Source: a virus
Taxonomy: Duplodnaviria; Caudoviricetes
Strand: one strand, 5' to 3'
Virus record (IMG/VR): IMGVR_UViG_3300024269_004845
DNA length: 64,000 bases
A program made the position numbers and the translations under genes. The notes beneath the pieces are model-generated. The model was not told the DNA's origin. It did no database searches and saw only the letters and a program-made list of their open reading frames with translations. Shown here in pieces: positions 3,710 to 32,698 of this stretch; positions within the stretch are counted from its first letter, which is position 1; each line of letters opens with the position of its first letter.

Positions 3710-3798
3710 ATTTTTTATCCTCCTTAGTATTCTTACCATTTTTGTTTTGAGCTTAATATATTATATAATTAAGCTTCATGAATTATCTAATATAAATC

Positions 3799-3830
3799 AC
3801 AAAAACCAAGACCGAAGTCTTGGTTTTTGT
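3799..3830 (-). terminator. Intrinsic terminator after AAA+ gene
   Basis: ACAAAAACCAAGAC-cgaa-GTCTTGGTTTTTGT. Confidence 0.7.
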
Positions 3831-3839
3831 TTTCTGTGG

Positions 3840-5651
3840 TTACTTAATCATCAGGTCTACGATGCTCTTAACCGCTTCGCGGTCTTCAACATCACGAATC
3901 TTAGGAACGATGGTGCTCATGATAGCACTCTTGATATCGTTACCCAGAGCGATGTTCTGTGCAGCGTAGATGAATGCACGCTGAGAGAAGCTGCGCTCCT
4001 GAATCTCTACACCACGAACACCCTTCAGCTTCTTGTAAAGCTCGTTAAGAATCTTTACGGCCTTAGCGGGAAGAGTAGGAACTTCCTGCTTCAGGATTTC
4101 TGCGATGTTGTCAGGTGCCTCGAACTCGATTACGTGCCAACGGTCCTCAAAGGCGAGGTTCAGCATGCTGGTACCAGCATATTCTGCACCTTCGTTCATA
4201 GTGGCAGTAAAAATAACGTCGTCATTGACTTCGATATTCTTATAACCATTGATGAGGATGTTACGGCGCTTATCGAGGGCGCTGTGGAGAGAAGATGTCA
4301 CAGTAGGACGAAGAGTGTTTACCTCGTCCAGATTGATGAGAGAAGGCTTCTCGAGGGCCTTAGTAAGGATGGAGGGCTCGAACTCAATCTGTGCGGTCTG
4401 AGAACGCATAGCGTCAAACAGAACAGAATAGTCGATATCGCCACCATTTTCCTTAATGGTCTCAATCTGCTCTTCAACGGAAGCGTTAGCGAACGCTTCC
4501 TTATCAATCTTTGCATTTGCGATAGCATCGATGAAAGATGCAAACGCAGCATTTACTGCATCAGGAGAAGGACACTCCTCGCTTGGCTTCATGGACAGAT
4601 AACCGTACAGGCCTTCCTCATCCACACCTGCGGAACAGGTCTTATCGATGAGGTTCAAATCCATGAGGTTGGCAAAGGTGGTAATGAACATGTTCTTACC
4701 ACTACCAGCGGGGCCAACCAGAAGCAGGTTACCCTTGGCGTAAGAGAAGGCGATAGCATTCTCTACTTCCTTGCCATGCGGGATGTAACAAGGAGCAAAC
4801 TCCACGATGTCCTTATGTCCTTCCATCTTCTTCACGAAGAGAGCGATTGCGTATTCAGCAACGCCGACATTCTTCAGCCAGTCGATGCGCTTCTGAACTT
4901 CGGCAGCATCTGCTTCAGCAAAGGACTTCAGAAGCTTATCGTAGTCCTTAGAAGGAGCAGCGACAGCGGCAACCTCTTCCTTCACTTCAACGGTGATGGT
5001 TACAGGGAATACCAGACCATCTACGAACTTAACCTCTGCGGAAGTGTTCTTAGATACCTTCATCGCAGAAACGATATCAGCAACGTTGTCCAGCTTGATA
5101 CCCTTAGCATTTAGGGTAGTCTTTGCAGTAGAGGAAATCTCTGCGGTAGCCATACCGCAAGGAACCTCGTTGTAGTCAAAGACGATGGACTCGTCGTTTT
5201 CAATCTTGGCCACGACAGGAACGGAGCCATTCTTGCGGGAAGCGGAAGCAACCTGCATACGATTAGGGTAGTTGAGCTTATTGCCAGCCAACAGGGTCCA
5301 GTAAGTCTTGGTTACAGTTCCACTGGTAGGAGCAGCGGCTTCCTTAACAGGAATGCCCACCAGAAGAGGGTCAATAGATGTAACCTTAACCAAGTCACCT
5401 TCGGCAACCATATTGAAGACATCCTTTGCCATAGGATATCCATTTGCCGTAGAAGGACGGGCCGCAACGAAACCCACCTCATTGCCATCGGCGGTTTCGA
5501 GCTTGATTGCATAAGGGTCTTCCTTGTAAGTGTTCAAACGAACAACCAGACTATCGCTGGTAGTCAGTCCCTTTGCCATGCTCTTACTAGCGGGTCCAAC
5601 AACGCGAACCTCCTGAATTTCTACGGTATTGTTTTTCTTAGTTCTAGCCAT
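3840..5651 (-). CDS. MoxR/CbbQ/CobS-type AAA+ ATPase with N-terminal HIRAN-like domain(s)
   Basis: Walker A GPAGSGKN, Walker B INLDEVN, sensor ATMN, Arg finger LAFEDRW. N-terminal DPYAIKLETADGNEVGFVA resembles HIRAN. Confidence 0.85.
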   Translation of the reverse strand: MARTKKNNTVEIQEVRVVGPASKSMAKGLTTSDSLVVRLNTYKEDPYAIKLETADGNEVGFVAARPSTANGYPMAKDVFNMVAEGDLVKVTSIDPLLVGIPVKEAAAPTSGTVTKTYWTLLAGNKLNYPNRMQVASASRKNGSVPVVAKIENDESIVFDYNEVPCGMATAEISSTAKTTLNAKGIKLDNVADIVSAMKVSKNTSAEVKFVDGLVFPVTITVEVKEEVAAVAAPSKDYDKLLKSFAEADAAEVQKRIDWLKNVGVAEYAIALFVKKMEGHKDIVEFAPCYIPHGKEVENAIAFSYAKGNLLLVGPAGSGKNMFITTFANLMDLNLIDKTCSAGVDEEGLYGYLSMKPSEECPSPDAVNAAFASFIDAIANAKIDKEAFANASVEEQIETIKENGGDIDYSVLFDAMRSQTAQIEFEPSILTKALEKPSLINLDEVNTLRPTVTSSLHSALDKRRNILINGYKNIEVNDDVIFTATMNEGAEYAGTSMLNLAFEDRWHVIEFEAPDNIAEILKQEVPTLPAKAVKILNELYKKLKGVRGVEIQERSFSQRAFIYAAQNIALGNDIKSAIMSTIVPKIRDVEDREAVKSIVDLMIK

Positions 5652-5695
5652 GTTTTTTTCCTCCCATTAAAATCTTTTGTTTTTTGGATACTAAA

Positions 5696-6976
5696 TTATA
5701 CTGTGAAAACATACTCCATATAAGCCTTTTTAACTTCTTCATCTGGAGATTTTGCATTCACTTTTGTCAGGAGCTTATTGACTCCTGTGTTGAATTGCTC
5801 GAAAGTTTTCATCCGAAGATATGGCCTGACATCGCCAAATTCGGAGATAAGGTCATCGATACCTTTTGTTTCGTCGGTATAATCCCACAGTGCATATTCA
5901 ACGGAAATTCCGTTTGCTTCGAGTTCCTGGCCGAGTTTAGCAGCCTGAGTAAGAACATTAATATTATAGCACATATCGGAGTCATACGCAACGATTACTC
6001 CCGAAAACTTAGGATACAGGGCCTTAAGACCCTTGATGGTACTCATGATTGGGCGCCAATTCGTAACGCCCTGAATACTGATTGCTGACATGCCATACTG
6101 TTTTCTGATTGCAACAGCCTTGAAAAAGCCTTCGGTAATGAACATTTTCTTGGTAAATTTACCAAGTTCAAAGCCAATTGGGCTACCAGGGCTCAAACCA
6201 TCCTGCAGATATGCGTTGTCAGGGTCATCTTTCAGACAAAAGCTGGAAGAAAACCAAACATACTTGTTGTCAGCCTTTGGGTCTCTTTTTCTGATTTGCA
6301 ATCCAACAATTTTACCCTCAAAGTCTTTACATGGGATAATAATGCCAGACTGATATCCGAATGAGAAAGGCTCTCCTTCTTTTTTGAAAAATCCAGGGAC
6401 TTCAAACAAAACGTCTGTTGTTCCGAACTTTTCGGAGACCTTAGACTCTAATTCCTTACGCAGACTCAAGAGTCTGCGAGGAAACGTTTTGAAGCCATAG
6501 GTCTGAATTTCGTCATCCGTGAACCCTCTTGTCTTCAAAAGGGCTGCATCTTCTTCGCTTAATGTAAGCATATCGAGGAAAATTCGATAAACTTCATCCA
6601 TCACTTGAAGATTTAGGACTTTCTTGACCGAAGGAATGGTCAAGATTTTACGCTCTACATCAGTGGAAATACGACCACTGAAATAGCCGAGGTTGAATTC
6701 CTTGGCTAGGCGCTTAACAGCATCGACAAAGCTTAAGCTGTACAGCTCCATGTAGAACTTTACGGGGCCACCAACGATATCCAACTTCCAATCGTGGAAA
6801 ATATTATTGGGAACGTTGATATTAAAAGACCCCAAACTGCCAGAAGGACGAAGCGGGCTTACAGTTTTAAGATTAGGGCCAACGCCACTAAAAACGCAAC
6901 CTACTCCTTCCAGGACTTCTTTTATCGGAAGTGCATTGCACTGTTCCGATAATTCTTCAAATGACTTCTTAGCCAT
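5696..6976 (-). CDS. Primase-like protein: Cys-less CHC2-like domain plus TOPRIM (DUF3854-like)
   Basis: SPLR..GSFNIN..FHDW..GGPVKF..SFVDAVKRL; TOPRIM motifs FITEGFFKA, AYDSD, KGIDD. Confidence 0.75.
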   Translation of the reverse strand: MAKKSFEELSEQCNALPIKEVLEGVGCVFSGVGPNLKTVSPLRPSGSLGSFNINVPNNIFHDWKLDIVGGPVKFYMELYSLSFVDAVKRLAKEFNLGYFSGRISTDVERKILTIPSVKKVLNLQVMDEVYRIFLDMLTLSEEDAALLKTRGFTDDEIQTYGFKTFPRRLLSLRKELESKVSEKFGTTDVLFEVPGFFKKEGEPFSFGYQSGIIIPCKDFEGKIVGLQIRKRDPKADNKYVWFSSSFCLKDDPDNAYLQDGLSPGSPIGFELGKFTKKMFITEGFFKAVAIRKQYGMSAISIQGVTNWRPIMSTIKGLKALYPKFSGVIVAYDSDMCYNINVLTQAAKLGQELEANGISVEYALWDYTDETKGIDDLISEFGDVRPYLRMKTFEQFNTGVNKLLTKVNAKSPDEEVKKAYMEYVFTV

Positions 6977-6997
6977 CGTTATTCTCCTCCTCCCATA

Positions 6998-7597
6998 CTA
7001 GAACGGGCTTTCGCCTACCTTTCTTGACACATCCTCGCCCTGCTGTGTATTTCGTTTCGCATCTCTGATTTTGCGAACGTCGTTACACCACAGAGCTAGA
7101 ACATTTCTCAGAGAACCTACCTTAGTCAGCTTTAGCTCACCGATGATAGAAATCGTATCGCCCTTCAGAACATTCTGATGCAGATAAATCGCGTCTGCAT
7201 CAAAAGCGATGAAAGGCAAGAAGAGTACGATACCTCCATCAGACTTAGACTGGAAAGGAATGTCCTTCATCTCGGGTACGTACTGAATGGACTTCTCGTA
7301 CCGTTCTCGAGAAATATTTACTGCTACAGTGGGCATTCGCAGATTGCGAAGCTCAACAGGAACGCTAGGAGTGTTATGAACTACCTCTTTAACGCCATTG
7401 ATGACCACGTTGTTCGTGGAGGTGGCACCTCGTACATTATCCTTTACCAGATAAAACGGTGTCACCAGCTTACTGCTTCCCTTGCAAAGGAAAGGGAAAT
7501 CATCGGTGGTGTTGCCTACACACTGAACGATATTTCTATCTCTATCGTCGTGTACGGCAAACAGGTAGTTCAAATCCTTTTTGTTGTTCTTCTCCAT
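6998..7597 (-). CDS. Divergent single-stranded DNA-binding protein (OB fold)
   Basis: FLPFIAFDADAIYLHQNVLKGDTISIIGEL matches the SSB core. C-terminus ends in PF. Confidence 0.55.
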   Translation of the reverse strand: MEKNNKKDLNYLFAVHDDRDRNIVQCVGNTTDDFPFLCKGSSKLVTPFYLVKDNVRGATSTNNVVINGVKEVVHNTPSVPVELRNLRMPTVAVNISRERYEKSIQYVPEMKDIPFQSKSDGGIVLFLPFIAFDADAIYLHQNVLKGDTISIIGELKLTKVGSLRNVLALWCNDVRKIRDAKRNTQQGEDVSRKVGESPF

Positions 7598-7619
7598 GTT
7601 TTTTCCTCCTTGGTGTATT

Positions 7620-7645
7620 TGTGCTTATATTATTATATAAATATT
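7620..7645 (-). promoter_or_regulatory. Conserved upstream motif copy (identical 26-mer to 24118-24143)
   Basis: AATATTTATATAATAATATAAGCACA contains a TATAAT -10 and lies just upstream of the ssb RBS. Confidence 0.7.
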
Positions 7646-7773
7646 AAATCTAAATAATAAGCGCAAGCGAACAAAATAATTTACTTATATTAATGATAAC
7701 ACAAAATATCGAAAAAAGAAATGCACATAACATATAAAATTTGTTACGTGCATTTATATATTTTTGTTATGTT

Positions 7774-9474
7774 TTATTTTTGGTTCCTTTGTTCTTGCCA
7801 GATACTATATGCATCGGGATATTCTTCAAGAACAGACTCATCAATAATGAAATTTCCATACTCGTCATAGTGACCTGTAATCTTAATACCACCTTGTTCT
7901 TCAATTAAGACTTCTGGCCTTACATAATCACCAATCTCGTTTCTAACAAGCAATACGCCGTCGCTATCAACTAATTCGCCTTTGGAATTATAATAATTGC
8001 CGTCTTTATTTTGTACGTATTTCACTACTTTTCCGTTGGAATCTATAATATTGTTGTATCTATCAATAAATTCACCATTTTTATTAATAGCTCTTCCTTT
8101 TTCATCAACTCTCTGTCCATACTTATTGATTCTGTCATTATTTTCATCAACGAGTTCTCCATCGCTATTAATAAAGTAATTTTCTCTATTTACCAAACGG
8201 CCATCGCTGTCGTAGTAATAATCATTAATATAAGGCTTGTTTGCTATAAAAATATCGGAATATTTTCTTTCTTGTCCTGTTGGGTCTTTTTTGATTTCTG
8301 CAAAATCACTAGAGCCAATAGAACCTATTAGAAAATAATCTTCATATGGGTTAAACAAATAAACATCTAGGTTTTTAGACAATACTTTTGTTGGTAGATA
8401 AGGAATACCAATAGTGTATAATTCTGCATAGTCATCATATCTGAAAACTCTTAGTTGGCTAAAGTTTTTATTACTAATGGTAGTTTTAAACAACGCGTAA
8501 ATGTTATTGTTTTTATCTACATACATGTGTAATGGATTTGCATATTGGATTTCAATGGCCTTATTAATATTCATATCTTTATAATCTACATTTAGAATTA
8601 AAGATTTTTCAGAACCATCACCAAAGTCACTAATTGTATAAATATTTTTATTTATACCGTCCATATATGTAGAGGTTACTGGGCGAATACTTCCATAATG
8701 TAAAGTTATTTGGTCATTTTCTATATCGTATTGTCCCATTTGAGTTTCATTAAAGAAGTAAATGTACTGAGTATTTGCAACCCAAGTATTAACATTTCCT
8801 GGAAGTTCGTATGTTGCCTTTGAAATTTTGGGGAAATTTGTAAGTTCTATATCAATTGTTGTCATATATTTATCTAAACCAGTATACCCTAAAAATTCTT
8901 TAGAATAATTCTCCATATAAACGTATGTTGCTTCTTTGCTTGTATTTACTGGGACATTTGTTGCATATGATAATTTTCCATCATCTGAAAGAATTTGTGG
9001 TCTGACATAGGAATAAATATTTGCTTTGGTTTCTGGATTATCTGTTGAATAATAAAATAATCCATTATATCCATAAATATCTTCTATATTACTTTCTTTT
9101 AAAATATAGTCTTTCATTGTTTTTAGTTCGTTTTTATAAACTAAAATCATTGTCATTTTTCTGGAAGTCTTATCTACGGCATATAATATGCGAGGCACAT
9201 TTTCGACTCCTTCTAATTGGCTACTATAAAGATTTCCTTCATCCATTGCATAAATATATTCACTTTCTTCGCCGCCGTTCAAATCTATTTCGGAAACAAC
9301 ATTACTTAGGTCGTCAAACATTGTAACAATTCCGTTTTCCGTTGTTAAAATATAATCTCCATTTCTAACAACTTCTGTAACTACATCTTGTTTCTGAGAA
9401 GTAGATGAACAACCTGTTAATATAGAAAAAATTGTACATATTACTAACAAAAGAGATACTCTTTTCTTTATCAT
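7774..9474 (-). CDS. Lipoprotein with beta-rich body and C-terminal short-period repeats
   Basis: Lipobox ILTGC. (D/N)xxG-x-(V/I) repeats near the C-terminus. Confidence 0.7.
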   Translation of the reverse strand: MIKKRVSLLLVICTIFSILTGCSSTSQKQDVVTEVVRNGDYILTTENGIVTMFDDLSNVVSEIDLNGGEESEYIYAMDEGNLYSSQLEGVENVPRILYAVDKTSRKMTMILVYKNELKTMKDYILKESNIEDIYGYNGLFYYSTDNPETKANIYSYVRPQILSDDGKLSYATNVPVNTSKEATYVYMENYSKEFLGYTGLDKYMTTIDIELTNFPKISKATYELPGNVNTWVANTQYIYFFNETQMGQYDIENDQITLHYGSIRPVTSTYMDGINKNIYTISDFGDGSEKSLILNVDYKDMNINKAIEIQYANPLHMYVDKNNNIYALFKTTISNKNFSQLRVFRYDDYAELYTIGIPYLPTKVLSKNLDVYLFNPYEDYFLIGSIGSSDFAEIKKDPTGQERKYSDIFIANKPYINDYYYDSDGRLVNRENYFINSDGELVDENNDRINKYGQRVDEKGRAINKNGEFIDRYNNIIDSNGKVVKYVQNKDGNYYNSKGELVDSDGVLLVRNEIGDYVRPEVLIEEQGGIKITGHYDEYGNFIIDESVLEEYPDAYSIWQEQRNQK

Positions 9475-21409: not shown

Positions 21410-21564
21410 CTATTTAATTCCTTTCTGTAATGTTTTATCTAAAAACATTATATCACATAAAAAGGATAAAGACAATAAAAAAGTGATTAACAAATTATTG
21501 TTGATAATTGTTTTTTATATAATATAAATAAGACCTACAAAAATATTAAATGGGAGGAAAATAA

Positions 21565-22950
21565 ATGGCTATTTGGATTAAGAAAGGATATTCCACGTTG
21601 GCTAGATACAATAGTCTTTCTTATATTTTCAACAATCCATCAGATGTAAATATCGATGAAGATGAAAATTTGGGGCTTTGGACTACGAAGTACGTTGGCA
21701 ACGAGTTATTCCTTTACAAATTGGATTTTACACGAAATGAAAAGGTTATCTTCTTCAAAGAAGTTGAACCTCGACTAATCGCAAGTTTTAACGATGATGG
21801 TGAATATACCACTGGCGATGGGCTCACCTTCATGCATGCAGTCTACAATAATATTGTAGATATTAACCCTATTGTGAATTTCCTGCGAGATTCCATGATT
21901 AAGAACGAATGTCTGTATAAACTCTTTTTCTTTGATGAGAACTTTGCTGATAGAGTCAATAGAAGTCGTAGAAATGCGGAATACAACGTGTCCATGAATG
22001 TTTTTGAGAATATCTTAAACAATGGGCTTATTTCTCTGGAAAAAGTGTTCACTGGTTGTTCGCTAGCTTTTTTTGTAGATAATATCTGCAAGGGAGATAT
22101 GGGTCTTCAGAATGACAAAAAGAAGTTGAGACAGGTGTTAGGATTGCCTTCGGCAGTCATCGATTTCCTGAAAGACAGTTCTTATTCTTCTCTTTATGGC
22201 AAATTTAAGGAACTTGCAGAAACAAAGGATGTCAATGATACCGTGTTCTTGGTCGAATATATGGCCTTGTTACGCCAAGTTGAGGTGCAGACCAGTCTAA
22301 TCAGTAATGGTGCTAGAAATTCTTTCGTTGAGAGCGTCATTGATATCGCACTTATGGTTAAGTCCAGTATGAAGGTAATTATCAATTATTTGCATACTCA
22401 GCAGTTTTATTACAACGAAATTGGTATGGGCATTATGATGCCTTATTCTGAAGCTATTGCGATGAGAGATTATCTTGCCATTGCCAAAAAGCATGGGCTT
22501 GAGGTTGACCCTCTACCGTCGAATCTTCGTGCAGCACACTTTTACATTCAGAATAACGTTTGCTATGCAGATGACGAAGCAAAGAATGAAGAGTTTAAGA
22601 AAGCTGTTGCGAAATATAGGAATTTGGAATATAAGGGAAAAACTTATTCAGTCGTTGTTCCTGATTCGATTGGCGCGATGATTGATGAGGGTATGCAAAT
22701 GCACCATTGTATCGCAAATTATGTTGACCTTGTTTGTACTGGTACAATCGTTCTGTTCTTGAGAAAAACCGAAAATCTTAAGGAATCTTTTGTGTCTTTT
22801 GAGGTTTCTGAGGATGGAGAATTCGTTCAGATTAAGGGAAAATATGATGCTGATATCGTTGAAACAGAAGAGGAGTCTGAGAACAACGAAGTTCTTAAGT
22901 TCCTAACAAAATGGAGGGAAAAGAAATATGAAGAAGTATATGGCAGCTGA
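21565..22950 (+). CDS. PcfJ-domain protein, copy 1
   Basis: RDYL..P.NL.AAH..EGMQMHHCIANY..VLFLRK..SFVSFEV..VQIKG. Confidence 0.85.
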   Translation: MAIWIKKGYSTLARYNSLSYIFNNPSDVNIDEDENLGLWTTKYVGNELFLYKLDFTRNEKVIFFKEVEPRLIASFNDDGEYTTGDGLTFMHAVYNNIVDINPIVNFLRDSMIKNECLYKLFFFDENFADRVNRSRRNAEYNVSMNVFENILNNGLISLEKVFTGCSLAFFVDNICKGDMGLQNDKKKLRQVLGLPSAVIDFLKDSSYSSLYGKFKELAETKDVNDTVFLVEYMALLRQVEVQTSLISNGARNSFVESVIDIALMVKSSMKVIINYLHTQQFYYNEIGMGIMMPYSEAIAMRDYLAIAKKHGLEVDPLPSNLRAAHFYIQNNVCYADDEAKNEEFKKAVAKYRNLEYKGKTYSVVVPDSIGAMIDEGMQMHHCIANYVDLVCTGTIVLFLRKTENLKESFVSFEVSEDGEFVQIKGKYDADIVETEEESENNEVLKFLTKWREKKYEEVYGS

Positions 22951-24073
22951 GGGTATTGAACTTCTTAAGGAGTTTAATATTTCTCATATTGAAACTACGA
23001 TTAATTATCGTTGCGACCGTATTATTTGTGCCGATTGCAATACAGTTTCGGATGCAGAAAATCCTTGTTCGTGTAAGAGAGAAGACAAAAAAAAGCGAGT
23101 TTACCATTCAATGGAAACTGGCGAAAATATCTTGGTTAAAGATTCTGGTCGTCTCTTCATCAGAGAGGAAGACGGCGCAAAGATTTTGTTCTATTACGAG
23201 CTCATTGGTTCCATCATCAAAGAGACTGGCGCTATAAAATTTTTTAAGAGACCAATCGAATTTATGTCAGTAAAAGACAACTCATTTACTTTTACTATGA
23301 CATATGGGGTTAACGAAATCGCTATTTCGGATGTGCTTAACATTTTGGAAGCCAATAATGTTCAGTGTGACAGGCTTATGAAGATATTAAAGCTTTGTAA
23401 AGTTTGTAACTATCATAACTGGGCCTCCTTAAATAAGTATGTTTCGATGATTGATGTTCGGGGGCACAAGCTCTTCGAAGATGAGAAATTTGTAGAATCT
23501 CATACTGCATTGATTAGACATGTAATCAATCGTAGTTATGGTAATGGTAAAATCGATTCTGTAAACGGTATTTGTGAATACTTTGAAATTCCTGAATGTT
23601 TAGTCGATTACACCAAAGACCCGTATTTCTCGAAGATTGATGGGTATTCGGATATTAGACTTTTGGATTCACATCCCATAGAAATTCAGGGGTGCTTCGC
23701 ATATTACATTGGTTCTGGCAAATTCACAAGAAGAACTATCAAGACTTACCTGGATACTTTTGATGTTTCGTTCTGGGATTCTAGAAACAAAATCAATTAT
23801 TTCCTGACGTATGTCAAGAAGAACTTGTGGATGGGTGACGCAGTTTTTGGAAAGGCTGTACAAACTTTTAAATATGTTGAGGAAAAGAAGTTTCCCACAA
23901 ATGAAGATACTATCAACTCTAAGTTCTGTTTCGGGATGAAGAATGTTGATATGTTTGCAGAGCGGTTTGGAACGGCTGAAGCAGATGAATTCCATCAGAT
24001 TCGAGAATCTCAAGGAATCGTTCCTGCGTTGAAGCAGTTACTCGTTTGGACAAACAAAAATGAAGGCGTATAA
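22928..24073 (+). CDS. PcfJ partner protein 1 (N-terminal Cys cluster)
   Basis: CADC..PCSC; overlaps the PcfJ-1 stop. Confidence 0.65.
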   Translation: MKKYMAAEGIELLKEFNISHIETTINYRCDRIICADCNTVSDAENPCSCKREDKKKRVYHSMETGENILVKDSGRLFIREEDGAKILFYYELIGSIIKETGAIKFFKRPIEFMSVKDNSFTFTMTYGVNEIAISDVLNILEANNVQCDRLMKILKLCKVCNYHNWASLNKYVSMIDVRGHKLFEDEKFVESHTALIRHVINRSYGNGKIDSVNGICEYFEIPECLVDYTKDPYFSKIDGYSDIRLLDSHPIEIQGCFAYYIGSGKFTRRTIKTYLDTFDVSFWDSRNKINYFLTYVKKNLWMGDAVFGKAVQTFKYVEEKKFPTNEDTINSKFCFGMKNVDMFAERFGTAEADEFHQIRESQGIVPALKQLLVWTNKNEGV

Positions 24074-24090
24074 ACGCCTTCATTTTTGTT
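24055..24090 (+). terminator. Intrinsic terminator closing PcfJ module 1
   Basis: AAAATGAAGGCGT-ataa-ACGCCTTCATTTT followed by T-rich sequence. Confidence 0.75.
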
Positions 24091-24117
24091 TTCTATTTCT
24101 TCTTATTTTTCATTCTA

Positions 24118-24143
24118 AATATTTATATAATAATATAAGCACA
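24118..24143 (+). promoter_or_regulatory. Conserved upstream motif copy
   Basis: AATATTTATATAATAATATAAGCACA, identical to 7620-7645(-). Confidence 0.7.
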
Positions 24144-24175
24144 TATAAACAAATTAACAAGGGAGGAAAATTAAA

Positions 24176-25609
24176 ATGGCTATTGTATTTACGTGCAAAA
24201 ATGGTAGACGATTTTACCAGTTGGTGAACATGAACGGGTATGGTTACGACCCTTATGGTTATCACACGAAAGAAATTAAGGAGGTCGATAATCCTCTTCC
24301 TTACGAGGAAGACATTTTGGCCTTCAATGGTACTGGTTATGGTGCCGAACTGGCGCTCGGTAAGTTCCGAATCGAAGAAGAAAAGTCTCCTTTTATGGAG
24401 AATCCTTACATCAAGATGTATGAAGACTTCCTGTCTTGTAAGAAAATTAGCTACGATGTAGCTTCCGACACTATCACTATCGACCCTGAGGTCGCAGAGA
24501 AAGTGTTTGCTTACGAGACCTTCCGCAACAATCCTGCTTGGTTTGAAAGGGCAACCAATTTCGTGTATTACATTGTAATGCATCGAAATCCTTACGTTTA
24601 TTGTCTTTTCTCTGAATTTACTCAGAAGAGTAAGAGATTTGCCAATAATTGTTCCAGCACGGAAAAGTTTTATACTGTTATCAATCTTTGGAAGAACATT
24701 GATGCGCTGAACAACTTTGAAAAGATTGTTAAGAGTATTGGTGAAGATTTCGTCTTTGATAACATCGGAAGAGCGGACTTTACCCTGAATAACGCCAAGA
24801 AGCTTCACCAGGTTGTGGAGATGCCTATGGTTGTTGCGCAGGGAATTCAGAAGCTCGGTGTGGAGGAAACTTTCTCCGATATCAAGACTATCACTGCTAT
24901 CGACAAGAACTATGCCGTAACGCTCATTGATTTCATCTTTGATTTCAAGAAGGCATTTCCTGGTAAGGATTTCTGTTGTAAGGCAGACGTCAGCGTATTC
25001 ATTAAGAACATCGCCAATCTGATGAGTACTGGAATTTACAACGAGAACTTCAATGATTTGCTTGGTTTCTTGGTCAATGAAAGTCTGAATTTCTCCAGAT
25101 TTAAGCTTCCCGTAAGCGAGTCTGGCGAACTGTTTGACTATCTCAAGATTGCTCAGCAGATGAAGGAAGCCAATGATGGCGTTAAGTTCGACCGATTCCC
25201 GAAAAACATCCAGAAGGCACACAATATTGTGATGCAGAACAGTACTATCATTTCTAAGCCTAGACCCGAAGAGTTTGCTGCTGCTGTTGCAAAACAGGCA
25301 TTCCTGAACGACGAGAAGGATGATGAATATGTATTCATGGTTCCTCGCAGTGAAATGGACCTCATGAACGAGGGTAATGCTCTGCACCACTGCGTAGCAA
25401 GCTATCGAGACCGAATTATTGATATGGGTACTAAGGTTGTATTCATGCGTAAGAAAGACGATGTGGAGACTCCTTTCGTTACCATCGAATATGAGGACGG
25501 GCTCGCCGTACAGATTAGAGAAATGTACAATGTGGATGTCACCGACACTGCAGTACTTGCCGCCGTTGATAGATGGCTGGCTCGTGCAGAACGTAGAGAG
25601 AAGAAATAA
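24176..25609 (+). CDS. PcfJ-domain protein, copy 2
   Basis: DYL..PKNIQKAH..EGNALHHCVASY..VVFMRK..PFVTIEY. Confidence 0.85.
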   Translation: MAIVFTCKNGRRFYQLVNMNGYGYDPYGYHTKEIKEVDNPLPYEEDILAFNGTGYGAELALGKFRIEEEKSPFMENPYIKMYEDFLSCKKISYDVASDTITIDPEVAEKVFAYETFRNNPAWFERATNFVYYIVMHRNPYVYCLFSEFTQKSKRFANNCSSTEKFYTVINLWKNIDALNNFEKIVKSIGEDFVFDNIGRADFTLNNAKKLHQVVEMPMVVAQGIQKLGVEETFSDIKTITAIDKNYAVTLIDFIFDFKKAFPGKDFCCKADVSVFIKNIANLMSTGIYNENFNDLLGFLVNESLNFSRFKLPVSESGELFDYLKIAQQMKEANDGVKFDRFPKNIQKAHNIVMQNSTIISKPRPEEFAAAVAKQAFLNDEKDDEYVFMVPRSEMDLMNEGNALHHCVASYRDRIIDMGTKVVFMRKKDDVETPFVTIEYEDGLAVQIREMYNVDVTDTAVLAAVDRWLARAERREKK

Positions 25610-25623
25610 GGAGGATAAAAAAT

Positions 25624-26793
25624 ATGGCAATCAGAAAGTATACGAAATGGATTGATAAGTGTGGTGCGAATCCTAAGGGAATTCGTATTACGCCTAACGC
25701 AAGCGCTTTTGTACGAACCGTTTGTTCCTGTGGGTTTGCTGATGCGGCGCAGGTTTACGAGTGCCCCAATTGTGGCAATACGGAATTCGTAGTTTGCGAT
25801 TCTTATGAAACCACCTATAAGAAGTTCCCTATCGAGGTGGTTGTTTCCAAGGGGGATGTATCCGTAATCCAGCGAGTTCAGAACATTTGGCTTCGTCAGG
25901 AAATCGAGATTGAAGAATCTCCTCAGAAGCTATTTACCTATGATGGGAAGAATGTTAACTTCCCTAGATGGAATAATCACGATGAGGTTTTTACTGCTCT
26001 GAGAGAAAACAAGAGTAAGCTTCCTGCTGAAATTGTTGAGGCTCTGGACACAATGGAAGATTTGGGCCACGGCAACAACTATCGGACTTTTGGCAAGTTG
26101 CTGGAAGAGCATCCCAAGACTGATATGTTTATCAGGATGGAAAAGGATGCCCATCCTGCCTTTACCAAGGCTCTAATCGACATGGTCTTCGGCTCTTATT
26201 CTAACTATCCTGATATGGATTTCGTATCTATGGAAGGATTTTTTAGAGAATATGCCGTTCCTGAAGAGTTTAAGGAGTTCGCTGATAAGTGTCCTTCCGA
26301 AATTCTTGACCGAACCATCAATGTTCGTCACAGAAGCTGGAGAGCATCTCCTAATGCAAAGTTTGAGAAACCTACTAATTGGGGCCTTGTTCCCGAAGAA
26401 ATCAAAGGTGTTTGTAAGTATTATGTCGAGAATGGCGTAATTTCTTTCCGCACTTATGCGTCTCTGGGGACCATTGAGCCTCAAATGCTCAAGAAAAAGG
26501 CGATTCTCAACTTGTATTTTAAGAAATATATGATGCAGTTTAAGGACCGTATCGTAAGTGCAGTAAATGCAACCTATCAGTATTTGACTGAAAACAATAT
26601 CCCTATCACCGAAACAACTTTCGATGAGAAGTGGTGTCGTCAGAAGCAGAATATTGATATGCTTTATTCGAATCTGGCTCGCTCTCAGTCAGACATCGAT
26701 GCATTCATCAACTACTGCGATACCGATGCAGTGAACGCCATTAAGAATCTCGCTAATGCGAAGAGGACTAAGAAGGCAAAAGCTGCTGAATAA
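25624..26793 (+). CDS. PcfJ partner protein 2 (zinc ribbon)
   Basis: VCSCG..CPNCGN. Confidence 0.65.
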   Translation: MAIRKYTKWIDKCGANPKGIRITPNASAFVRTVCSCGFADAAQVYECPNCGNTEFVVCDSYETTYKKFPIEVVVSKGDVSVIQRVQNIWLRQEIEIEESPQKLFTYDGKNVNFPRWNNHDEVFTALRENKSKLPAEIVEALDTMEDLGHGNNYRTFGKLLEEHPKTDMFIRMEKDAHPAFTKALIDMVFGSYSNYPDMDFVSMEGFFREYAVPEEFKEFADKCPSEILDRTINVRHRSWRASPNAKFEKPTNWGLVPEEIKGVCKYYVENGVISFRTYASLGTIEPQMLKKKAILNLYFKKYMMQFKDRIVSAVNATYQYLTENNIPITETTFDEKWCRQKQNIDMLYSNLARSQSDIDAFINYCDTDAVNAIKNLANAKRTKKAKAAE

Positions 26794-26833
26794 ACTAAAA
26801 GACCCCTATCGAAAGATAGGGGTCTTTTAGTTT
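26792..26833 (+). terminator. Intrinsic terminator closing PcfJ module 2
   Basis: AAACTAAAAGACCCCTATC-gaaa-GATAGGGGTCTTTTAGTTT. Confidence 0.8.
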
Positions 26834-26911
26834 TTGCTTTTATTTTTCTGAGTTCAACTTTGTATAATAATATTAGCACAACAAAAGAAAATCAAATGGG
26901 AGGAAAAATTT

Positions 26912-28261
26912 ATGAACATTGTTATCAGAAAAGGGGAAAAGCAGTATTCGCTTATTCCTGGGAAAGCTGCTAGTAGCAGAAGTACCTTCAACATGGGTGA
27001 CGAAAAAGAAATTATCTGTGAGTCAGCAGAATACATGGTAGAAGAAACGTCCGATGCCATTAAGCTACTGTCTCGGGATGTTAAATGCGTATTCGAAGAG
27101 GAATATGGCATGGAATATCCTGTGTTCTCTTACGGTACTACCAATCTGGTATTGGCTTTTGATAAGTCCAGCCAGCATATCGATGGAGAATACGAAAGCA
27201 TCATCGAACAGCTTTGTTATGTAGAAGAATTCGGTGAGTTTCTGAATCGTGTGGCCTACCACATTAATAAGTACATGTATGTAATCTACTGTACCGAAAT
27301 GAAGTGCCATTCTTATTATGGCTGGTCGATGAATCGACACACTGCTTTAAATACCATTAAGTTTATCAACGATGGTGTTTTTGGGCAGCTTGAAAGTCTC
27401 ATTAAGAATTTGGGTTTGGAGTTCTTTACGAGCAACATTTCTCGTGAAGATTTCACACTGAACAACGCAAAGAAGCTTCATCGTGTCGTCGAACTGCCTA
27501 AGCAGGCCATTGATTTCTTGAAGGATAAGGAATTTGCAGACCTCCTGTCTCAGTTCCGAATTCTTGCCGCTGATGACCCCAATGAGGTTATCACGCTTGT
27601 TGATTGGTACAACAAGTACAAGAAGTATCAGAATCTTAAGAAAGGTCTTCAGGAATTCAAGAGTTATGTTAATCTTTTGGTAGATATCAAGAAGAAGGAT
27701 GATAGGATTACTCTTAATCGTTTGATTCCTTATCTTGCTGCTCAGAGATTCTACTATTGTTGGCCTGTAGAAGACAAATTCGAACTTCCTTACTCTGAAG
27801 CACGTCTATATCGTGACTATCAGAATCTTGGCGGTGGAGAAACTTATCCTTCCTGCCTTGAAGCCGCTCACAACATCCTTGAGCGAAACAAGAGCATTAC
27901 TAACAACAAAGAGCTTTGCGATAAGTTTGCTGAGGTTGTAAAGCCTCTCAAGGCGCTGGAATGGGTACATGATGGTTATACCATTGTCGCTCCCGTTAAG
28001 GCTCAGGACTTTGTAGATGAGGGTGAAGCACTTCATCACTGTCTTGCAACTTACGTAGAGTTGGTTGCGAACGGCTCCGAAAAAGTAATGTTCCTCAGAG
28101 ACGAAAAGACGCCAGAACAGTCTTTGGTAACCTTTGCTTTTGACGATAATTTCAATATTGTTGAGGCTAAGGAAGCTTATAACGTCGATGTTGAGGAACC
28201 TAAGATTCTGAAGGTTCTTCAGGATTGGAAGAAAAAGCAGCGTGCTGCAATGTCTAAATAA
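26912..28261 (+). CDS. PcfJ-domain protein, copy 3
   Basis: RDY..PSCLEAAH..EGEALHHCLATY..VMFLR..SLVTF. Confidence 0.85.
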   Translation: MNIVIRKGEKQYSLIPGKAASSRSTFNMGDEKEIICESAEYMVEETSDAIKLLSRDVKCVFEEEYGMEYPVFSYGTTNLVLAFDKSSQHIDGEYESIIEQLCYVEEFGEFLNRVAYHINKYMYVIYCTEMKCHSYYGWSMNRHTALNTIKFINDGVFGQLESLIKNLGLEFFTSNISREDFTLNNAKKLHRVVELPKQAIDFLKDKEFADLLSQFRILAADDPNEVITLVDWYNKYKKYQNLKKGLQEFKSYVNLLVDIKKKDDRITLNRLIPYLAAQRFYYCWPVEDKFELPYSEARLYRDYQNLGGGETYPSCLEAAHNILERNKSITNNKELCDKFAEVVKPLKALEWVHDGYTIVAPVKAQDFVDEGEALHHCLATYVELVANGSEKVMFLRDEKTPEQSLVTFAFDDNFNIVEAKEAYNVDVEEPKILKVLQDWKKKQRAAMSK

Positions 28262-28281
28262 CAAAATGGAGGAGAAAAAAC

Positions 28282-29505
28282 ATGGCTGTAAGAATTTTTA
28301 ATTCGTGTACCAATACCCATTATCTCACTGAAATGGGTATCGAAGGTATTACTATCAATGTAAATGACGGGAAGGATACTCGTCATGTTTGTGCTTGTGG
28401 ATGGGTTGATAAGGGAGATATTGATACCTGTCCTAAGTGCGGTAACAAGCATTGGGTTTTTGTTTCTGCTAATAATTGGAGTAGAAGCTCTGTGCCCGTT
28501 TATATCAAGTCTAAGGAACCTGTGATTCGTCCTATCGGTTCTGGTTTTGAAATCATCGAAACCGCTTTGAAGGTTTTCGAAACTTCCGCTAAGCAGTTGA
28601 ATCTTGCTTATGAGGATTTTTCTACTCTCGAAGTCGACCTATGGAAGCTCGATTACAAGAATCGTCCTCGTGTGAGTATCAATAATGATATCGACATCAC
28701 TAAATACCTCATCGAGCATATTGGTGAGATTACTGATGAAGCTATTAGAGATACCATTTTGGACGCCGTAAGAGTATCTTCTGGTATTTGGGGCGGGAAC
28801 AATTATCTTGCCATGGCTTATAAATTGATTGGATATCCTTGTGTTATGCATCTTCTAACCGATGAGAATATCGCCAAGTATGCAAGATTTTTTAAGGAAT
28901 CCTTCAATCGTAATGAGTGGAATCGCAGTGACCCGTTTCCTGGGAACACTTGTCTAACTATGAAAGAGTTCTGGGCTCTTATGGGGCTTCCTGAAGACTA
29001 CGCCGCATACTACGCTTCTGACAGTTTTAGCTATTCGTACTACTATTACAGAAGTTCTGAAGATAAGATTGAACCCGCTAAGCTGCATGCTCTTCCTATC
29101 GAATTGCAGCGCACAATGAAGAGTTGTTTGGAGCACAAGACCATCACTCTTCAGACGATTCGGAGTATTTTGAGCTGGTCCGATGGTCAGAGCGAAAAAA
29201 CTCTGGTTCTTCTTGCTAAGTTTATGAAACGTCATGGAATGCAGTATCAAGGAAGAGTCTTTGACCGATTCAAAGAATATCTTTCTTTGGCTCATGATAT
29301 GGGCTATGATGAGGAAAGCATTCTGCAGCCTCGTAGATTTTCCATGCTCGAAGCCATGACACTTCTAAAGCGTAGAGGGTATCCTGATTCTCGTGTTAGC
29401 GCTTTTTGTGATATATTTGACCTTAACCCTTCCGTTGGTCTGGGACTACTTGGTTCTAAGGCTCAGCTTAAGAAGGATGAGGCAGATAAGATTTACAATC
29501 GGTAA
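28282..29505 (+). CDS. PcfJ partner protein 3 (zinc ribbon)
   Basis: VCACG..CPKCGN. Confidence 0.65.
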   Translation: MAVRIFNSCTNTHYLTEMGIEGITINVNDGKDTRHVCACGWVDKGDIDTCPKCGNKHWVFVSANNWSRSSVPVYIKSKEPVIRPIGSGFEIIETALKVFETSAKQLNLAYEDFSTLEVDLWKLDYKNRPRVSINNDIDITKYLIEHIGEITDEAIRDTILDAVRVSSGIWGGNNYLAMAYKLIGYPCVMHLLTDENIAKYARFFKESFNRNEWNRSDPFPGNTCLTMKEFWALMGLPEDYAAYYASDSFSYSYYYYRSSEDKIEPAKLHALPIELQRTMKSCLEHKTITLQTIRSILSWSDGQSEKTLVLLAKFMKRHGMQYQGRVFDRFKEYLSLAHDMGYDEESILQPRRFSMLEAMTLLKRRGYPDSRVSAFCDIFDLNPSVGLGLLGSKAQLKKDEADKIYNR

Positions 29506-29511
29506 CATATT

Positions 29512-29581
29512 GAGACTCGCACGAATGCGAGTCTCTTTTTTTTGAAAAAAATAAAACCACCGTTTTTTAACGGTGGTTTTT
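29512..29581. terminator. Back-to-back terminators between convergent units
   Basis: GAGACTCGCA/TGCGAGTCTC plus T tract; AAAACCACCGTT/AACGGTGGTTTT. Confidence 0.75.
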
Positions 29582-29595
29582 ACATTATTAAATAA

Positions 29596-29880
29596 TTAAT
29601 CTTCTACGGAATCAGCTTCGACAGAACCCTTCTTATTTAATTTCATATGTCTATACATATATGTATCGATAGCTCTATTAATGTCTCCAGTAGTAGTTAA
29701 ATTCATTCTTTCAAGCTGGTATTCTAAGCTATCACCAGAGAACTTATCGCAAAGTTCCTCACAAATTGCATTACACAATACTGAGCGGTTATATTCACCT
29801 GTCTTTTCAATGGCATTTGCGATAATCTTTTTTGTACCTCTAGTTAATACTTCTGGATTCTTATTAATCTTTTTTCCCAT
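29596..29880 (-). CDS. Small hypothetical protein
   Basis: Start placed at ATG 29880 after AAGGAG. Confidence 0.6.
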   Translation of the reverse strand: MGKKINKNPEVLTRGTKKIIANAIEKTGEYNRSVLCNAICEELCDKFSGDSLEYQLERMNLTTTGDINRAIDTYMYRHMKLNKKGSVEADSVED

Positions 29881-30057
29881 TTTAATCACGCTCCTTATTT
29901 TTGGTTGGATGAGTGCGATATTATATGTCAAATGTTTGTTTAAAACTCTTATATCACTGCTCATTAAATTATATTATTTGCTTATTTACATTATAATATA
30001 TATTATTGAAAAAATCAAGTCTTTTTGAGAAAAAAATAAAAAAAATATAAAAAAGGG

Positions 30058-30240
30058 GTGATTGCGTTGATTAATAGAATGAAATACGCCATTACAGGAG
30101 AAAACGGCGGGCCAACCGTTGAATTAATAGTTGCTATTTCTGTCGCATTAACGTTTGTAATTGCTCTTGGGAGTTTGGCAGCTACCGTTATTTCGTGGAT
30201 TGCTGGCGCCACTGGTGCAGTTTCATCCCTTCATGAATAA
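30058..30240 (+). CDS. Flp-type pilin
   Basis: Leader GENG|GPTVE with Glu+5, then a hydrophobic helix; about 60 aa. Confidence 0.7.
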   Translation: MIALINRMKYAITGENGGPTVELIVAISVALTFVIALGSLAATVISWIAGATGAVSSLHE

Positions 30241-30254
30241 TGGGGGTGGTGCAA

Positions 30255-30863
30255 ATGTTTAAAAAACTCAAGAATAATAACAACGGTAATATAGAAATAA
30301 CACGTGTAATTTGTTATTTTTACTTAATAATTTGCATCGCATTTGTACTTGATATAATTTTCGTAATCGGTCAAAATGTTGTAACTTCTTATGAGGCTGC
30401 ATATTACGCGGAAAAGATATCTATCCAGGGTGGGTTAGTCGGAGATAAAGCGTTTTATCCATCAATAGCTGAAGTAAAGAAAATGAATGGGGCTAATGCT
30501 TGTTATACTTACCAAAAGCCATGTGAAAATAGTTGCTTACCAAATGGAACGATAACTGAAAGAATATCGACAACACTTGGATATTTCGGAGTTGCGCCAA
30601 ATGAATGGGCTGGCTATTTACAAGGAGGGGGAGAAACCACAGTATTCCATTCCAAAATGAATCAGGCTACAGGTGGAGATAAAAGAAAGGTTTATGATTA
30701 TATGTCTACCGCAACCTTTATTATTAGTTCCGACTGGCAACCCATATTCGCTAAATATTTATGGGCTGAAGATTTTTACACAATTGAAAAGTATGTGCCG
30801 ATTGTTATTGAATATATTCCTCAAGTAAATCCAAATGATGATGCCTGCAAGAATCTTTATTGA
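30255..30863 (+). CDS. TadE-like minor pilin
   Basis: Basic leader KKLKNNNNG| then hydrophobic helix, AAYYA..IS..GG. Confidence 0.6.
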   Translation: MFKKLKNNNNGNIEITRVICYFYLIICIAFVLDIIFVIGQNVVTSYEAAYYAEKISIQGGLVGDKAFYPSIAEVKKMNGANACYTYQKPCENSCLPNGTITERISTTLGYFGVAPNEWAGYLQGGGETTVFHSKMNQATGGDKRKVYDYMSTATFIISSDWQPIFAKYLWAEDFYTIEKYVPIVIEYIPQVNPNDDACKNLY

Positions 30864-30878
30864 GGAGGTTGATATCAT

Positions 30879-31460
30879 ATGAATTTTTTCAATAAAATAA
30901 AAAACAATAAAGGTAGTGCTGAAAGTGCTATGTTTGTTTTTGGTCTTGCGATATTTGCGACTATAGTAGTGTTTTCAATGGATATATTTGGACTTACTTG
31001 GCAGCGTTATTTATCAACTAGAGAGCTTTCGAATATGTCGCGTTTATACGCTATTAGAGCAACGGACTTGTATATTGATGATTCCCAATCAGGTGTTCTG
31101 GACAGTATGATAACCACTCCAGACAAATCAGACTTGGGGAAAGAAATGGCAGATATCATGAAAATGATTGTCGCTCACGGGAAAATAGATAATGCAGTTT
31201 TGACCATAACAAAGGGTCCTGGGGGAGTTCAGTTATTAAGAATCACAGCTGATAGAAATTCCACTGATATAGTTGCAGCAGGATACGAACAAATAAAAGT
31301 TTTAGATTATGGTGATGATTTAATTGCTGAATTAAAAATAGAATATAATAATTCTACTTTTAAGGGCGTTGGAGCTCAAGAAAAATCAAAAAACTCATAT
31401 GTGATTCAAAACAAATTTGCATTTGAAGACTTTGCTCATGATGGAAACAATGTTGGATAA
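30879..31460 (+). CDS. TadE/F-like minor pilin
   Basis: KIKNNKG|SAE then hydrophobic helix, SRLYA. Confidence 0.6.
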   Translation: MNFFNKIKNNKGSAESAMFVFGLAIFATIVVFSMDIFGLTWQRYLSTRELSNMSRLYAIRATDLYIDDSQSGVLDSMITTPDKSDLGKEMADIMKMIVAHGKIDNAVLTITKGPGGVQLLRITADRNSTDIVAAGYEQIKVLDYGDDLIAELKIEYNNSTFKGVGAQEKSKNSYVIQNKFAFEDFAHDGNNVG

Positions 31461-31472
31461 GGAGGTATTGCT

Positions 31473-32030
31473 ATGATAAAAAAGTTAAAAAATAATAATC
31501 GTGGTGGTGCCGACCTCCAATTTGCAATTGCAACATTCTTATATATGTTTGTTGTCTGTGTTGGGTTATTGCTAGACTTTTGGTACGTTTCTTCTGCAAA
31601 AGTACATGTTTTAAAGACTGTAGAAGCTGCAGAATTATATTGTCTAGTTACTAATGCTCCTGAAAGTCATCACGATGCATCTGCAAAATACGAAAGTCTT
31701 TGGGAAATGAATTTAGCTGCTAACCAACAAGCTGCTTTGAATTGTGCTAAACCAGAGTTAGAAGCTCGTTTGGGTAATTTACCATATCTTAAACCTGGCG
31801 ATGAGGGTCTTGATATTCAGCATGTCTTTGGGTTAGGTAACACAATAGGACAAATGGGGATAAGTACTGAGATGAGATATCAAGTAAAAACAATGATTAG
31901 AAGTCCTCAACAATTATTTAACTTCATGAGACCTGACAACCTAGAATTAACGGCTGCAAGATGGGTTCCATTAAAGGTAACTTCTAAACTAGTACCTATG
32001 TTGGAAGACCAACATATTGCTGATTCTTAA
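31473..32030 (+). CDS. TadG-like minor pilin
   Basis: KKLKNNNRG|G then hydrophobic helix, GLLLD..K..L...EAA. Confidence 0.6.
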   Translation: MIKKLKNNNRGGADLQFAIATFLYMFVVCVGLLLDFWYVSSAKVHVLKTVEAAELYCLVTNAPESHHDASAKYESLWEMNLAANQQAALNCAKPELEARLGNLPYLKPGDEGLDIQHVFGLGNTIGQMGISTEMRYQVKTMIRSPQQLFNFMRPDNLELTAARWVPLKVTSKLVPMLEDQHIADS

Positions 32031-32071
32031 AAAAAATAATGGCTAGTCGATATTCGACTAGCCATTTTCTA

Positions 32072-32698
32072 TTATTCAATAATTAAAACTGACTTATTAT
32101 CAGGGATATAAACATACTTATATCCACAGCTCTTGTATATTAATCTGTCGGTTGTTTTATATCTTTTACCATTAATTAAATATTCAATATCTCCATTATA
32201 AACTCTTTCTGTGGCCTTACAACCAATAGCATTCACAACTTTAACTATTTCTTTTCTAAAAATTTTCTGGAGTTTTGAGATAAGAACATTTACATCTTTG
32301 TCTAAGTCAATCATGATGCTTTTTTCTTGAGTATAAACAGAATACCCAGAAATAATAGAAAGATAATTATAGTGTGGCATTTCTAAAACAACTAAATTGT
32401 TTTCAATGGTCTTTGCCTGTAAGAAATCAGTACTGTTTAAAATTTCTTCTTTTGTTTTTGTAGTCTTCATTCCATTTTTATACGTGATAGCATAATAGGA
32501 TAAGTCTTCTCCAATATATACAATTTCTTTAATATTATTATCAGATACTAAAATATTAGCAACATATTCACCCATGTCTACATTTCTCATAAAATATTGC
32601 TTTTTGTAATGTTTTGATATCTGTTCTATAAAATCAAAATTTCTAATAACGTATTTGGTAGATTTATACTTAAAATTTATCTTCACAAAAGGGTCCAT
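32072..32698 (-). CDS. Hypothetical protein
   Basis: ORF with an upstream TTGATT..TATTAT promoter-like site and a downstream hairpin. Confidence 0.5.
   Translation of the reverse strand: MDPFVKINFKYKSTKYVIRNFDFIEQISKHYKKQYFMRNVDMGEYVANILVSDNNIKEIVYIGEDLSYYAITYKNGMKTTKTKEEILNSTDFLQAKTIENNLVVLEMPHYNYLSIISGYSVYTQEKSIMIDLDKDVNVLISKLQKIFRKEIVKVVNAIGCKATERVYNGDIEYLINGKRYKTTDRLIYKSCGYKYVYIPDNKSVLIIE

Follow-up and report, generated by a model that had tools for sequence, protein, structure and literature searches.

What is the function of three tandem, diverged copies of a two-gene cassette on a giant, plasmid-like element of gut bacteria? The question is raised by a DNA stretch of 64,000 nucleotides (IMG/VR record IMGVR_UViG_3300024269_004845; below, the window), in which six co-oriented open reading frames (ORFs) at positions 21565-29505 form three pairs. 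Each pair consists of a PcfJ-type gene followed by a gene for a cysteine-cluster protein of about 390 amino acids (aa), which we call the partner. A sequence-only reading of this region had described three units of promoter, PcfJ gene, Cys-cluster gene and terminator, and we recovered all six ORFs with the same coordinates and motifs. The array is a real and well-delimited form of the PcfJ module with an undescribed partner family: judged in silico, a conserved pair that duplicates as a unit and whose products are probably heterodimeric. We were not able to find a functional study of PcfJ in the open literature.

The cassette as a conserved pair

The three PcfJ-type proteins (P0001, P0003 and P0005) score 70.8, 73.1 and 62.6 bits against PF14284, all above the Pfam gathering threshold of 25 bits. 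This domain is C-terminal in each of them, and phrog_3169 covers most of their length. The copies are pairwise 27-31% identical over 310-367 residues (E 1e-28 to 3e-39), and all of them carry the motif EG..(L/M)HHC...Y and a central block of the DFTLNNAKKLH type. Within the pairs the two genes are close together, with an overlap of 23 nucleotides in cassette 1 and gaps of 14 and 20 nucleotides in cassettes 2 and 3.

Are the partners related to each other as well? Partners 2 and 3 align over their full length (E 1e-12) and partners 1 and 2 in their C-terminal part (E 1.6e-9). By these alignments the three partners are homologous, linked via the middle copy, and a relation on which the sequence-only reading had depended is thereby confirmed. 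A profile of the family scores all three at E <=6e-86, with the three proteins themselves among its rows. The pattern VCxCG...CPxCGN, which had been described as common to partners 2 and 3, can be read in both sequences, and partner 1 has four cysteines at another spacing (CxxC...CxC).

We wanted to know whether the pairing is conserved elsewhere. Metagenome contigs were scanned with the PcfJ alignment, which gave 80 loci, and their six-frame ORFs were searched with profiles of both families. If we count the full-length PcfJ relatives with readable downstream DNA, all 11 loci are paired, as the sequence-only reading had expected. In ten of ten loci with a full-length PcfJ match (L004-L013), a partner homologue lies directly downstream on the same strand, overlapping or a few nucleotides away; the eleventh, in L020, is a more distant pair (hhalign probability 96%, E 5e-9). 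PcfJ genes that match by the C-terminal domain alone are never found with a partner.

A survey of copy number, also proposed earlier, found tandem cassettes in L004, L005, L006 and L007/L008. The last three have two cassettes each, which come from a more recent duplication. In L004 all three cassettes have orthologues, arranged in the order seen in the window and with the same genes after them; the cassette 1 orthologue is a fragment of partner 1 (35% identity, E 4e-33). Because these orthologues stand in order, the triplication predates the split of these elements, with all three pairs retained. As old paralogues that lie side by side in related elements, the three pairs are probably non-redundant. 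Furthermore, the bit scores of PcfJ and partner covary across 12 pairs (Pearson 0.97, Spearman 0.61, uncorrected for relatedness). From these comparisons, we take the duplicating unit to be the pair.

A complex of P0003 and P0004 is predicted with a score of 0.69, compared to 0.00 for the best of three controls. Of 80 solved complexes, 58 attain the mark used for this score, against 2 of 110 mismatched pairs (rough counts, obtained with our own alignments). At least 89% of the contacts are common to the runs, and the predicted local distance difference test (pLDDT) of the partner is at least 84. On the PcfJ side the predicted interface consists of residues 249-265, 293-309, 344-354 and 406-413, and on the partner side of residues 42-53, 267-272, 302-307 and 335-378. 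Conservation among orthologues is higher at the interface than elsewhere, both in the partner (0.86 vs 0.71) and in PcfJ (0.69 vs 0.63). To our knowledge there is no comparable complex, and since none is known, it seems unlikely that the pair passed because the predictor remembered a similar one. The model supports binding between PcfJ and partner; of the interaction proposed in the sequence-only reading, one cognate pair is now predicted.

Folds and families of the two proteins

The AlphaFold2 model of P0003 begins with a domain rich in beta strands, continues with a long helical part and has, at residues 385-476, a strand, two helices, three strands and a helix. Among 95 PcfJ proteins, four of which were found independently of the search motif, residues E399, G400, H405, C406, Y410 and R425 are invariant; Y and R lie outside the pattern of that motif. 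The first histidine of "HHC" and D454 are not invariant in this set. In the model, C406 is placed directly ahead of a helix, where reactive cysteines are commonly found. We consider that the domain probably contains a cysteine-dependent catalytic or ligand-binding site.

The sequence-only reading had named a fold like that of the GCN5-related N-acetyltransferases (GNAT) as one proposed for PcfJ. P0003 residues 373-477 align to the N-terminal 100-125 or so residues of about 40 GNAT structures (VIA-align, Z 5.0-6.7, 85-105 residues aligned), and they have the same order of strand, two helices, three strands and helix. The best matches are 3pzj_B (Z 6.7, root-mean-square deviation (rmsd) 3.0 A, 95 aligned) and 2zw4_A (Z 6.4, rmsd 3.1 A, 95 aligned). 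These Z values, calculated for a domain taken from the full-length model, are middling, though the family is consistent down the list. On the other hand, P0003 ends at the helix 458-476 after strand 4, without strands 5-7 and helix 4. The loop that would correspond to motif A (Q/R-x-x-G-x-G/A, which in a GNAT holds the CoA pyrophosphate between strand 4 and helix 3) reads YNVDVTD in P0003 and has no glycine anywhere in the subfamily alignment, and none of the known GNAT motifs corresponds to the invariant PcfJ residues (E, HC, Y, R). A Foldseek search of the Protein Data Bank (PDB) with the whole PcfJ model gave no match. The model thus suggests a domain that is GNAT-like in shape only: the likeness was recovered for the N-terminal half, at modest Z, while the motif that binds coenzyme A (CoA) and the second half are absent.

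The partner family is rare. When 1.84 billion representatives were searched exhaustively with a profile, 46 clusters were found, nearly all of 380-440 aa; a word-based search found only 7. Six positions (R31, C34, C36, G37, C47 and L376) show conservation of 90% or more among 36 family members. The two cysteine pairs are present in knuckles (CxC ... CxxC), which include CPxCG in partners 2 and 3. The AlphaFold2 model of partner 2, made from 36 sequences, has a beta domain of about 105 residues that holds the CxC...CxxC ribbon, followed by a helical domain. We describe the partner as a putative zinc-ribbon protein of an undescribed family.

Searches for known relatives of the partners returned little. 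There was no significant match in Pfam, PHROG or NCBIfam, and neither a tblastn search of phage and plasmid collections with P0004 nor a scan of viral contigs with a single protein found anything. The alignment scan gave only a segment that resembles the zinc ribbon, within a larger ORF of L003; it was not counted as a relative. A sequence search of the PDB gave weak matches only, to "Orf20" (E 0.026) and to the zinc-ribbon segments of ribosomal L31/L32. With the model, Foldseek found nothing below E 0.1 in the PDB, and the best match of a wide VIA-align search covers helices only (5cwg_A, Z 4.1, rmsd 3.8 A, 94 aligned); both searches used the whole-chain model, so that this null result does not establish a new fold. 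The ESM Atlas was of no help either: the best feature score is 0.80, and its own model is poor.

One lead is that the partner could be a paralogue of a non-catalytic part of PcfJ. It comes from matches in BFVD to phage "PcfJ like" proteins (E 4e-4 to 0.06, with TM scores of merely 0.2-0.28), from sub-threshold profile matches located N-terminally in three related PcfJ ORFs (E 0.007-0.05) and from a zinc-ribbon N-terminus on a split PcfJ gene of L015. Against this lead, hhalign gives a probability of 0.4% for the partner family and the cognate PcfJ family, and it supports just a 29-residue ribbon in L035 (74%). The split gene (L015:3288-4762) is apparently interrupted after a poly-A run; its upstream piece of 110 aa has CxCG...CPxC and matches the partner profile with E 4.8e-5. 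In view of this piece, some PcfJ proteins may themselves carry the N-terminal domain of the partner.

Between close copies, the partners diverge two to four times faster than PcfJ (non-synonymous divergence, dN, 0.025-0.046 vs 0.008-0.012).

Other PcfJ pairings and the genomic setting

How does the cassette relate to the PcfJ modules that are already described? The closest is PcfK-PcfJ (PF14058 and PF14284), found on pCF10-type plasmids of E. faecalis, in many phages and in integrative and conjugative elements (ICEs). It has the same C-terminal PcfJ domain with the invariant E-G..L.HC...Y and R, one tightly coupled neighbour, and a setting in conjugative or phage DNA in which SSB and other genes of the entry type are close by. 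In the cassettes, however, the neighbour is downstream instead of upstream; it encodes a zinc-ribbon protein of about 390 aa from an undescribed family, and the unit has multiplied into arrays whose copies have diverged.

We tallied the neighbours of PcfJ genes, using our own PcfK profile built on seven proteins. There is a PcfK upstream of 33 genes and a zinc-ribbon partner downstream of 18; no gene has both, 12 have neither, and 28 could not be assessed. In the 64-kb window no PcfK was found (best profile E 0.66), nor was any found in L004-L013. The coupled upstream ORFs of other loci were PF14058 in five of five cases tested, one of them fused to MutS domain I. On an E. faecalis plasmid and on a Vescimonas plasmid, a gene annotated as "Cas9 inhibitor AcrIIA9 family" is directly upstream of PcfJ. 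AcrIIA9 carries the Pfam PcfK domain (PMC6739104) and, as summarised in a 2026 preprint (10.64898/2026.08.04.741601), blocks DNA binding and cleavage by Cas9. On gene content, the zinc-ribbon cassette is an alternative form of the widespread PcfJ module, in which the partner stands in place of PcfK.

Two further arrangements were seen. At L052:4185-5195 (also in L053-L055, L070, L076-L078 and L083) a PcfK-like protein has MutS domain I (PF01624, E 8.6e-20) while the rest of MutS is absent, and its gene is coupled upstream of a PcfJ class of 439 aa. A PcfJ class of about 700 aa (L023:4140-8070; L028, L032, L041, L044, L047 and L048) has a DUF7666 gene upstream and a coupled ORF of 420-440 aa downstream, and may be a third kind of PcfJ pairing. 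We considered these downstream ORFs as relatives of the partner; they are unrelated by hhalign and have no Pfam match.

The family PHROG 3169, from large Firmicute phages, is similar over more than the C-terminal domain: the match reaches into the helical middle (profile positions 105-469 of 474, E 3e-38). The difference is that the PcfJ gene of Bacillus phage Bc431v3 (orf019) stands alone, and the next ORF, of 80 aa, is not a partner.

Each cassette seems to be a self-contained transcription unit, to judge from a promoter motif, a ribosome-binding site (GGGAGG in each cassette) and a terminator (Table 1). The promoter-like 17-mer TATAATAATATWAGCAC, of the TATAAT type, is exact ahead of cassettes 2 and 3 and diverged ahead of cassette 1; with up to three mismatches, about 1.9 matches per window are expected by chance. 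In the related loci, the cassettes likewise have their own promoter-like site and terminator.

Table 1. Genes and putative transcription signals of the three cassettes, with a further copy of the promoter-like motif (positions in the window; AF2, AlphaFold2)
Feature	Position	Strand	Evidence or remark
Promoter-like site, cassette 1	21516-21535	+	Diverged shared motif, aligned with three other upstream regions
PcfJ-type gene 1 (P0001, 461 aa)	21565-22950	+	PF14284 E 1.4e-19; phrog_3169 E 1.5e-36
Partner gene 1 (P0002, 381 aa)	22928-24073	+	Family profile E 5.9e-86; E 1.6e-9 to partner 2
Terminator-like hairpin after cassette 1	24052-24091	+	18-pair stem, T tail
Promoter-like 17-mer, cassette 2 (TATAATAATATAAGCAC)	24126-24142	+	Exact match; about 45 nucleotides resemble the upstream region of the primase operon
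PcfJ-type gene 2 (P0003, 477 aa)	24176-25609	+	PF14284 E 2.8e-20; AF2 model pLDDT 87.5
Partner gene 2 (P0004, 389 aa)	25624-26793	+	CxC...CxxC zinc ribbon, residues 34-50; AF2 model pLDDT 91.2
Terminator-like hairpin after cassette 2	26792-26833	+	19-pair stem, T tail
Promoter-like 17-mer, cassette 3 (TATAATAATATTAGCAC)	26863-26879	+	Exact pattern match
PcfJ-type gene 3 (P0005, 449 aa)	26912-28261	+	PF14284 E 4.5e-17; phrog_3169 E 3e-38, residues 105-446
Partner gene 3 (P0006, 407 aa)	28282-29505	+	CxC...CxxC zinc ribbon; family profile E 3.6e-102
Terminator-like hairpin after cassette 3	29512-29535	+	Faces minus-strand hairpin 29553-29580
Further exact copy of the 17-mer	7621-7637	-	Ahead of the operon 6998-7597 / primase-like / AAA_5 ATPase / vWA

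The same window encodes a Replic_Relax relaxase-like protein, VirD4, a HerA-type ATPase, SecY, RecA, RuvC and a prepilin peptidase, together with Mre11/Rad50-like genes and the primase-like/AAA_5/vWA operon (Pfam matches). These genes are in keeping with a giant element of the conjugative, plasmid-like kind from gut Firmicutes. A prepilin peptidase gene lies upstream of cassette 1 on the opposite strand. At the other end, the facing hairpins after cassette 3 separate the array from a convergent gene (29596-29964). The four genes past the array (30240-32698; 207, 193, 185 and 208 aa) have no Pfam or PADLOC match, and at least part of the region 29.6-31.4 kb is syntenic after the array in L004 (tblastx). 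A minus-strand ORF of 506 aa (24110-25630), antisense to the entire PcfJ gene 2, is probably a by-product of composition.

The content of guanine and cytosine (GC) is 0.40 in the array and 0.32-0.33 in its flanks; the primase-AAA-vWA operon is also GC-rich (0.41-0.47, window 2001-8000). These GC-rich regions are the ones that share the promoter 17-mer, and the related loci are without such a GC difference. Of the related loci, L010 (2050-11436) has a single cassette between a TraG/VirB4-type P-loop ATPase and a ClpX-like ATPase with a sigma-70-family factor, and in L012 an anaerobic ribonucleotide reductase pair (NrdD and its radical-SAM activase) adjoins the cassette.

Possible functions of the pairs

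The reading that we favour, tentatively and as one joint proposition that falls somewhat short of likely, is a two-subunit complex of PcfJ and zinc-ribbon protein with a role in the early or establishment phase of the element. The PcfJ subunit would consist of an N-terminal beta domain that varies between copies, a middle part of helices that exposes the conserved NNAKKLH-type motif, and the C-terminal PcfJ domain with its invariant cluster of E, H-C, Y and R. In the model, the C-terminal helices of the zinc-ribbon subunit pack on the helical middle of PcfJ, and the HC..Y segment is also part of the predicted interface. The target would probably be set by the faster-evolving partner and by the variable N-terminal domains. 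The complexes would probably be made early, alongside the primase-AAA-vWA operon, and would help the element to establish itself in the cell, most likely by acting on DNA or on DNA-bound host factors, including defence proteins.

Four observations point to this early or establishment role, possibly one in counter-defence: the cassettes have the promoter 17-mer and about 45 nucleotides around it in common with the primase-AAA-vWA operon, PcfJ is frequent in lytic phages, elsewhere the family is associated with PcfK/AcrIIA9 and with entry genes of the SSB type, and the partner changes faster than PcfJ. By analogy with the coupling to PcfK of the AcrIIA9 family elsewhere, and from the promoter shared with the primase-AAA-vWA operon, the pairs possibly act against host defences.

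A number of points weigh against the favoured reading. The timing of expression is deduced from the shared promoter motif only, and the 17-mer occurs in none of the related loci scanned. The binding prediction covers one cognate pair (P0003-P0004). The GNAT likeness is middling, as the domain has neither the loop that binds CoA nor the second half of a GNAT, and few substitutions stand behind the dN/dS values of 0.5-1.1 (the ratio of non-synonymous to synonymous divergence). Among catalogued defence and anti-defence families the only match is a weak one in PADLOC 2.0, of PDC-S51 to P0004 residues 301-370 (E 4.8e-4, 17 bits). Finally, we could find no measured activity, substrate, metal or binding for any PcfJ protein in the open literature.

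A more specific version goes further than the favoured reading and is, in our view, doubtful. Here the pair would be a novel two-component, cysteine-dependent enzyme with which giant elements, conjugative or phage-like, act on host defence or DNA-bound host factors as they enter the cell. Targeting would be the task of the partner, in place of PcfK/AcrIIA9, and each paralogue would have a different host target.

Could the pairs instead be effectors with their immunity proteins, or something similar to toxins and antitoxins? PcfJ would then be a harmful enzyme and the partner its cognate neutraliser, which sits on the HC..Y site, and the cassettes would form a polymorphic array or a set of addiction modules. 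The gene order, the translational coupling and the separate promoter of each pair are what one would expect of such modules, PcfJ residues 406-413 are in the predicted interface, the partner evolves faster than PcfJ, and several elements have arrays of diverged pairs. The tandem polymorphic cassettes of contact-dependent inhibition (CDI), type VI secretion (T6SS) and Rhs-type systems are also diverged two-gene arrays, and here too the second product is predicted to bind the first. The cassettes of the window differ from them, however, in that all are full length, each under a promoter and ahead of a terminator of its own, that a toxin domain, a secretion signal and a small immunity protein are absent, and that they occur on phages and plasmids, not in secretion loci. 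Moreover, most PcfJ genes of phages and plasmids are without such a partner or an obvious neutraliser and have a coupled PcfK upstream. For an immunity protein the partner would also be unusual in its size (about 390 aa) and in the high conservation of its zinc-ribbon end, and no toxin-antitoxin or defence model matches beyond the weak PADLOC match above. We find this explanation unlikely.

To an equal degree we think it improbable that the pairs are housekeeping accessory factors for replication, repair or segregation of the element's own DNA, with paralogues for different sites or stages. This would fit the promoter in common with the primase-like/AAA/vWA operon and the recA, ruvC, Mre11/Rad50-like and HerA genes within the window. 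Furthermore, in other loci MutS domain I, which binds DNA, can be part of the PcfK partner, and zinc ribbons often bind nucleic acid. On the other hand, no DNA-binding or nuclease family was detected in PcfJ or partner with Pfam, PHROG or NCBIfam, and the fast divergence and the repeated duplication of the pair suit a conflict better.

It is very unlikely that the array is the element's own defence or exclusion system, with each pair sensing a different phage or rival plasmid: the tandem paralogues are diversified and autonomously expressed, and defence islands are frequent on large plasmids, but PcfJ is common in lytic Bacillus and Enterococcus phages (215 phage records) and adjoins an anti-CRISPR family, both of which point to the offensive side, and there is no significant PADLOC match.

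PcfJ is among the commonest uncharacterised families on the phages, plasmids and ICEs of Firmicutes and Bacteroidota. The locus gives this family a defined, predicted binding partner and reveals a clear either/or relation with PcfK, to whose family a known inhibitor of Cas9 belongs. It also supplies a short list of invariant residues and natural sets of paralogues that bear on specificity. If the pairs are indeed enzymes that act at the entry stage, this would help to explain how very large mobile elements settle in new hosts, and it would give a function to the entire PcfJ family.

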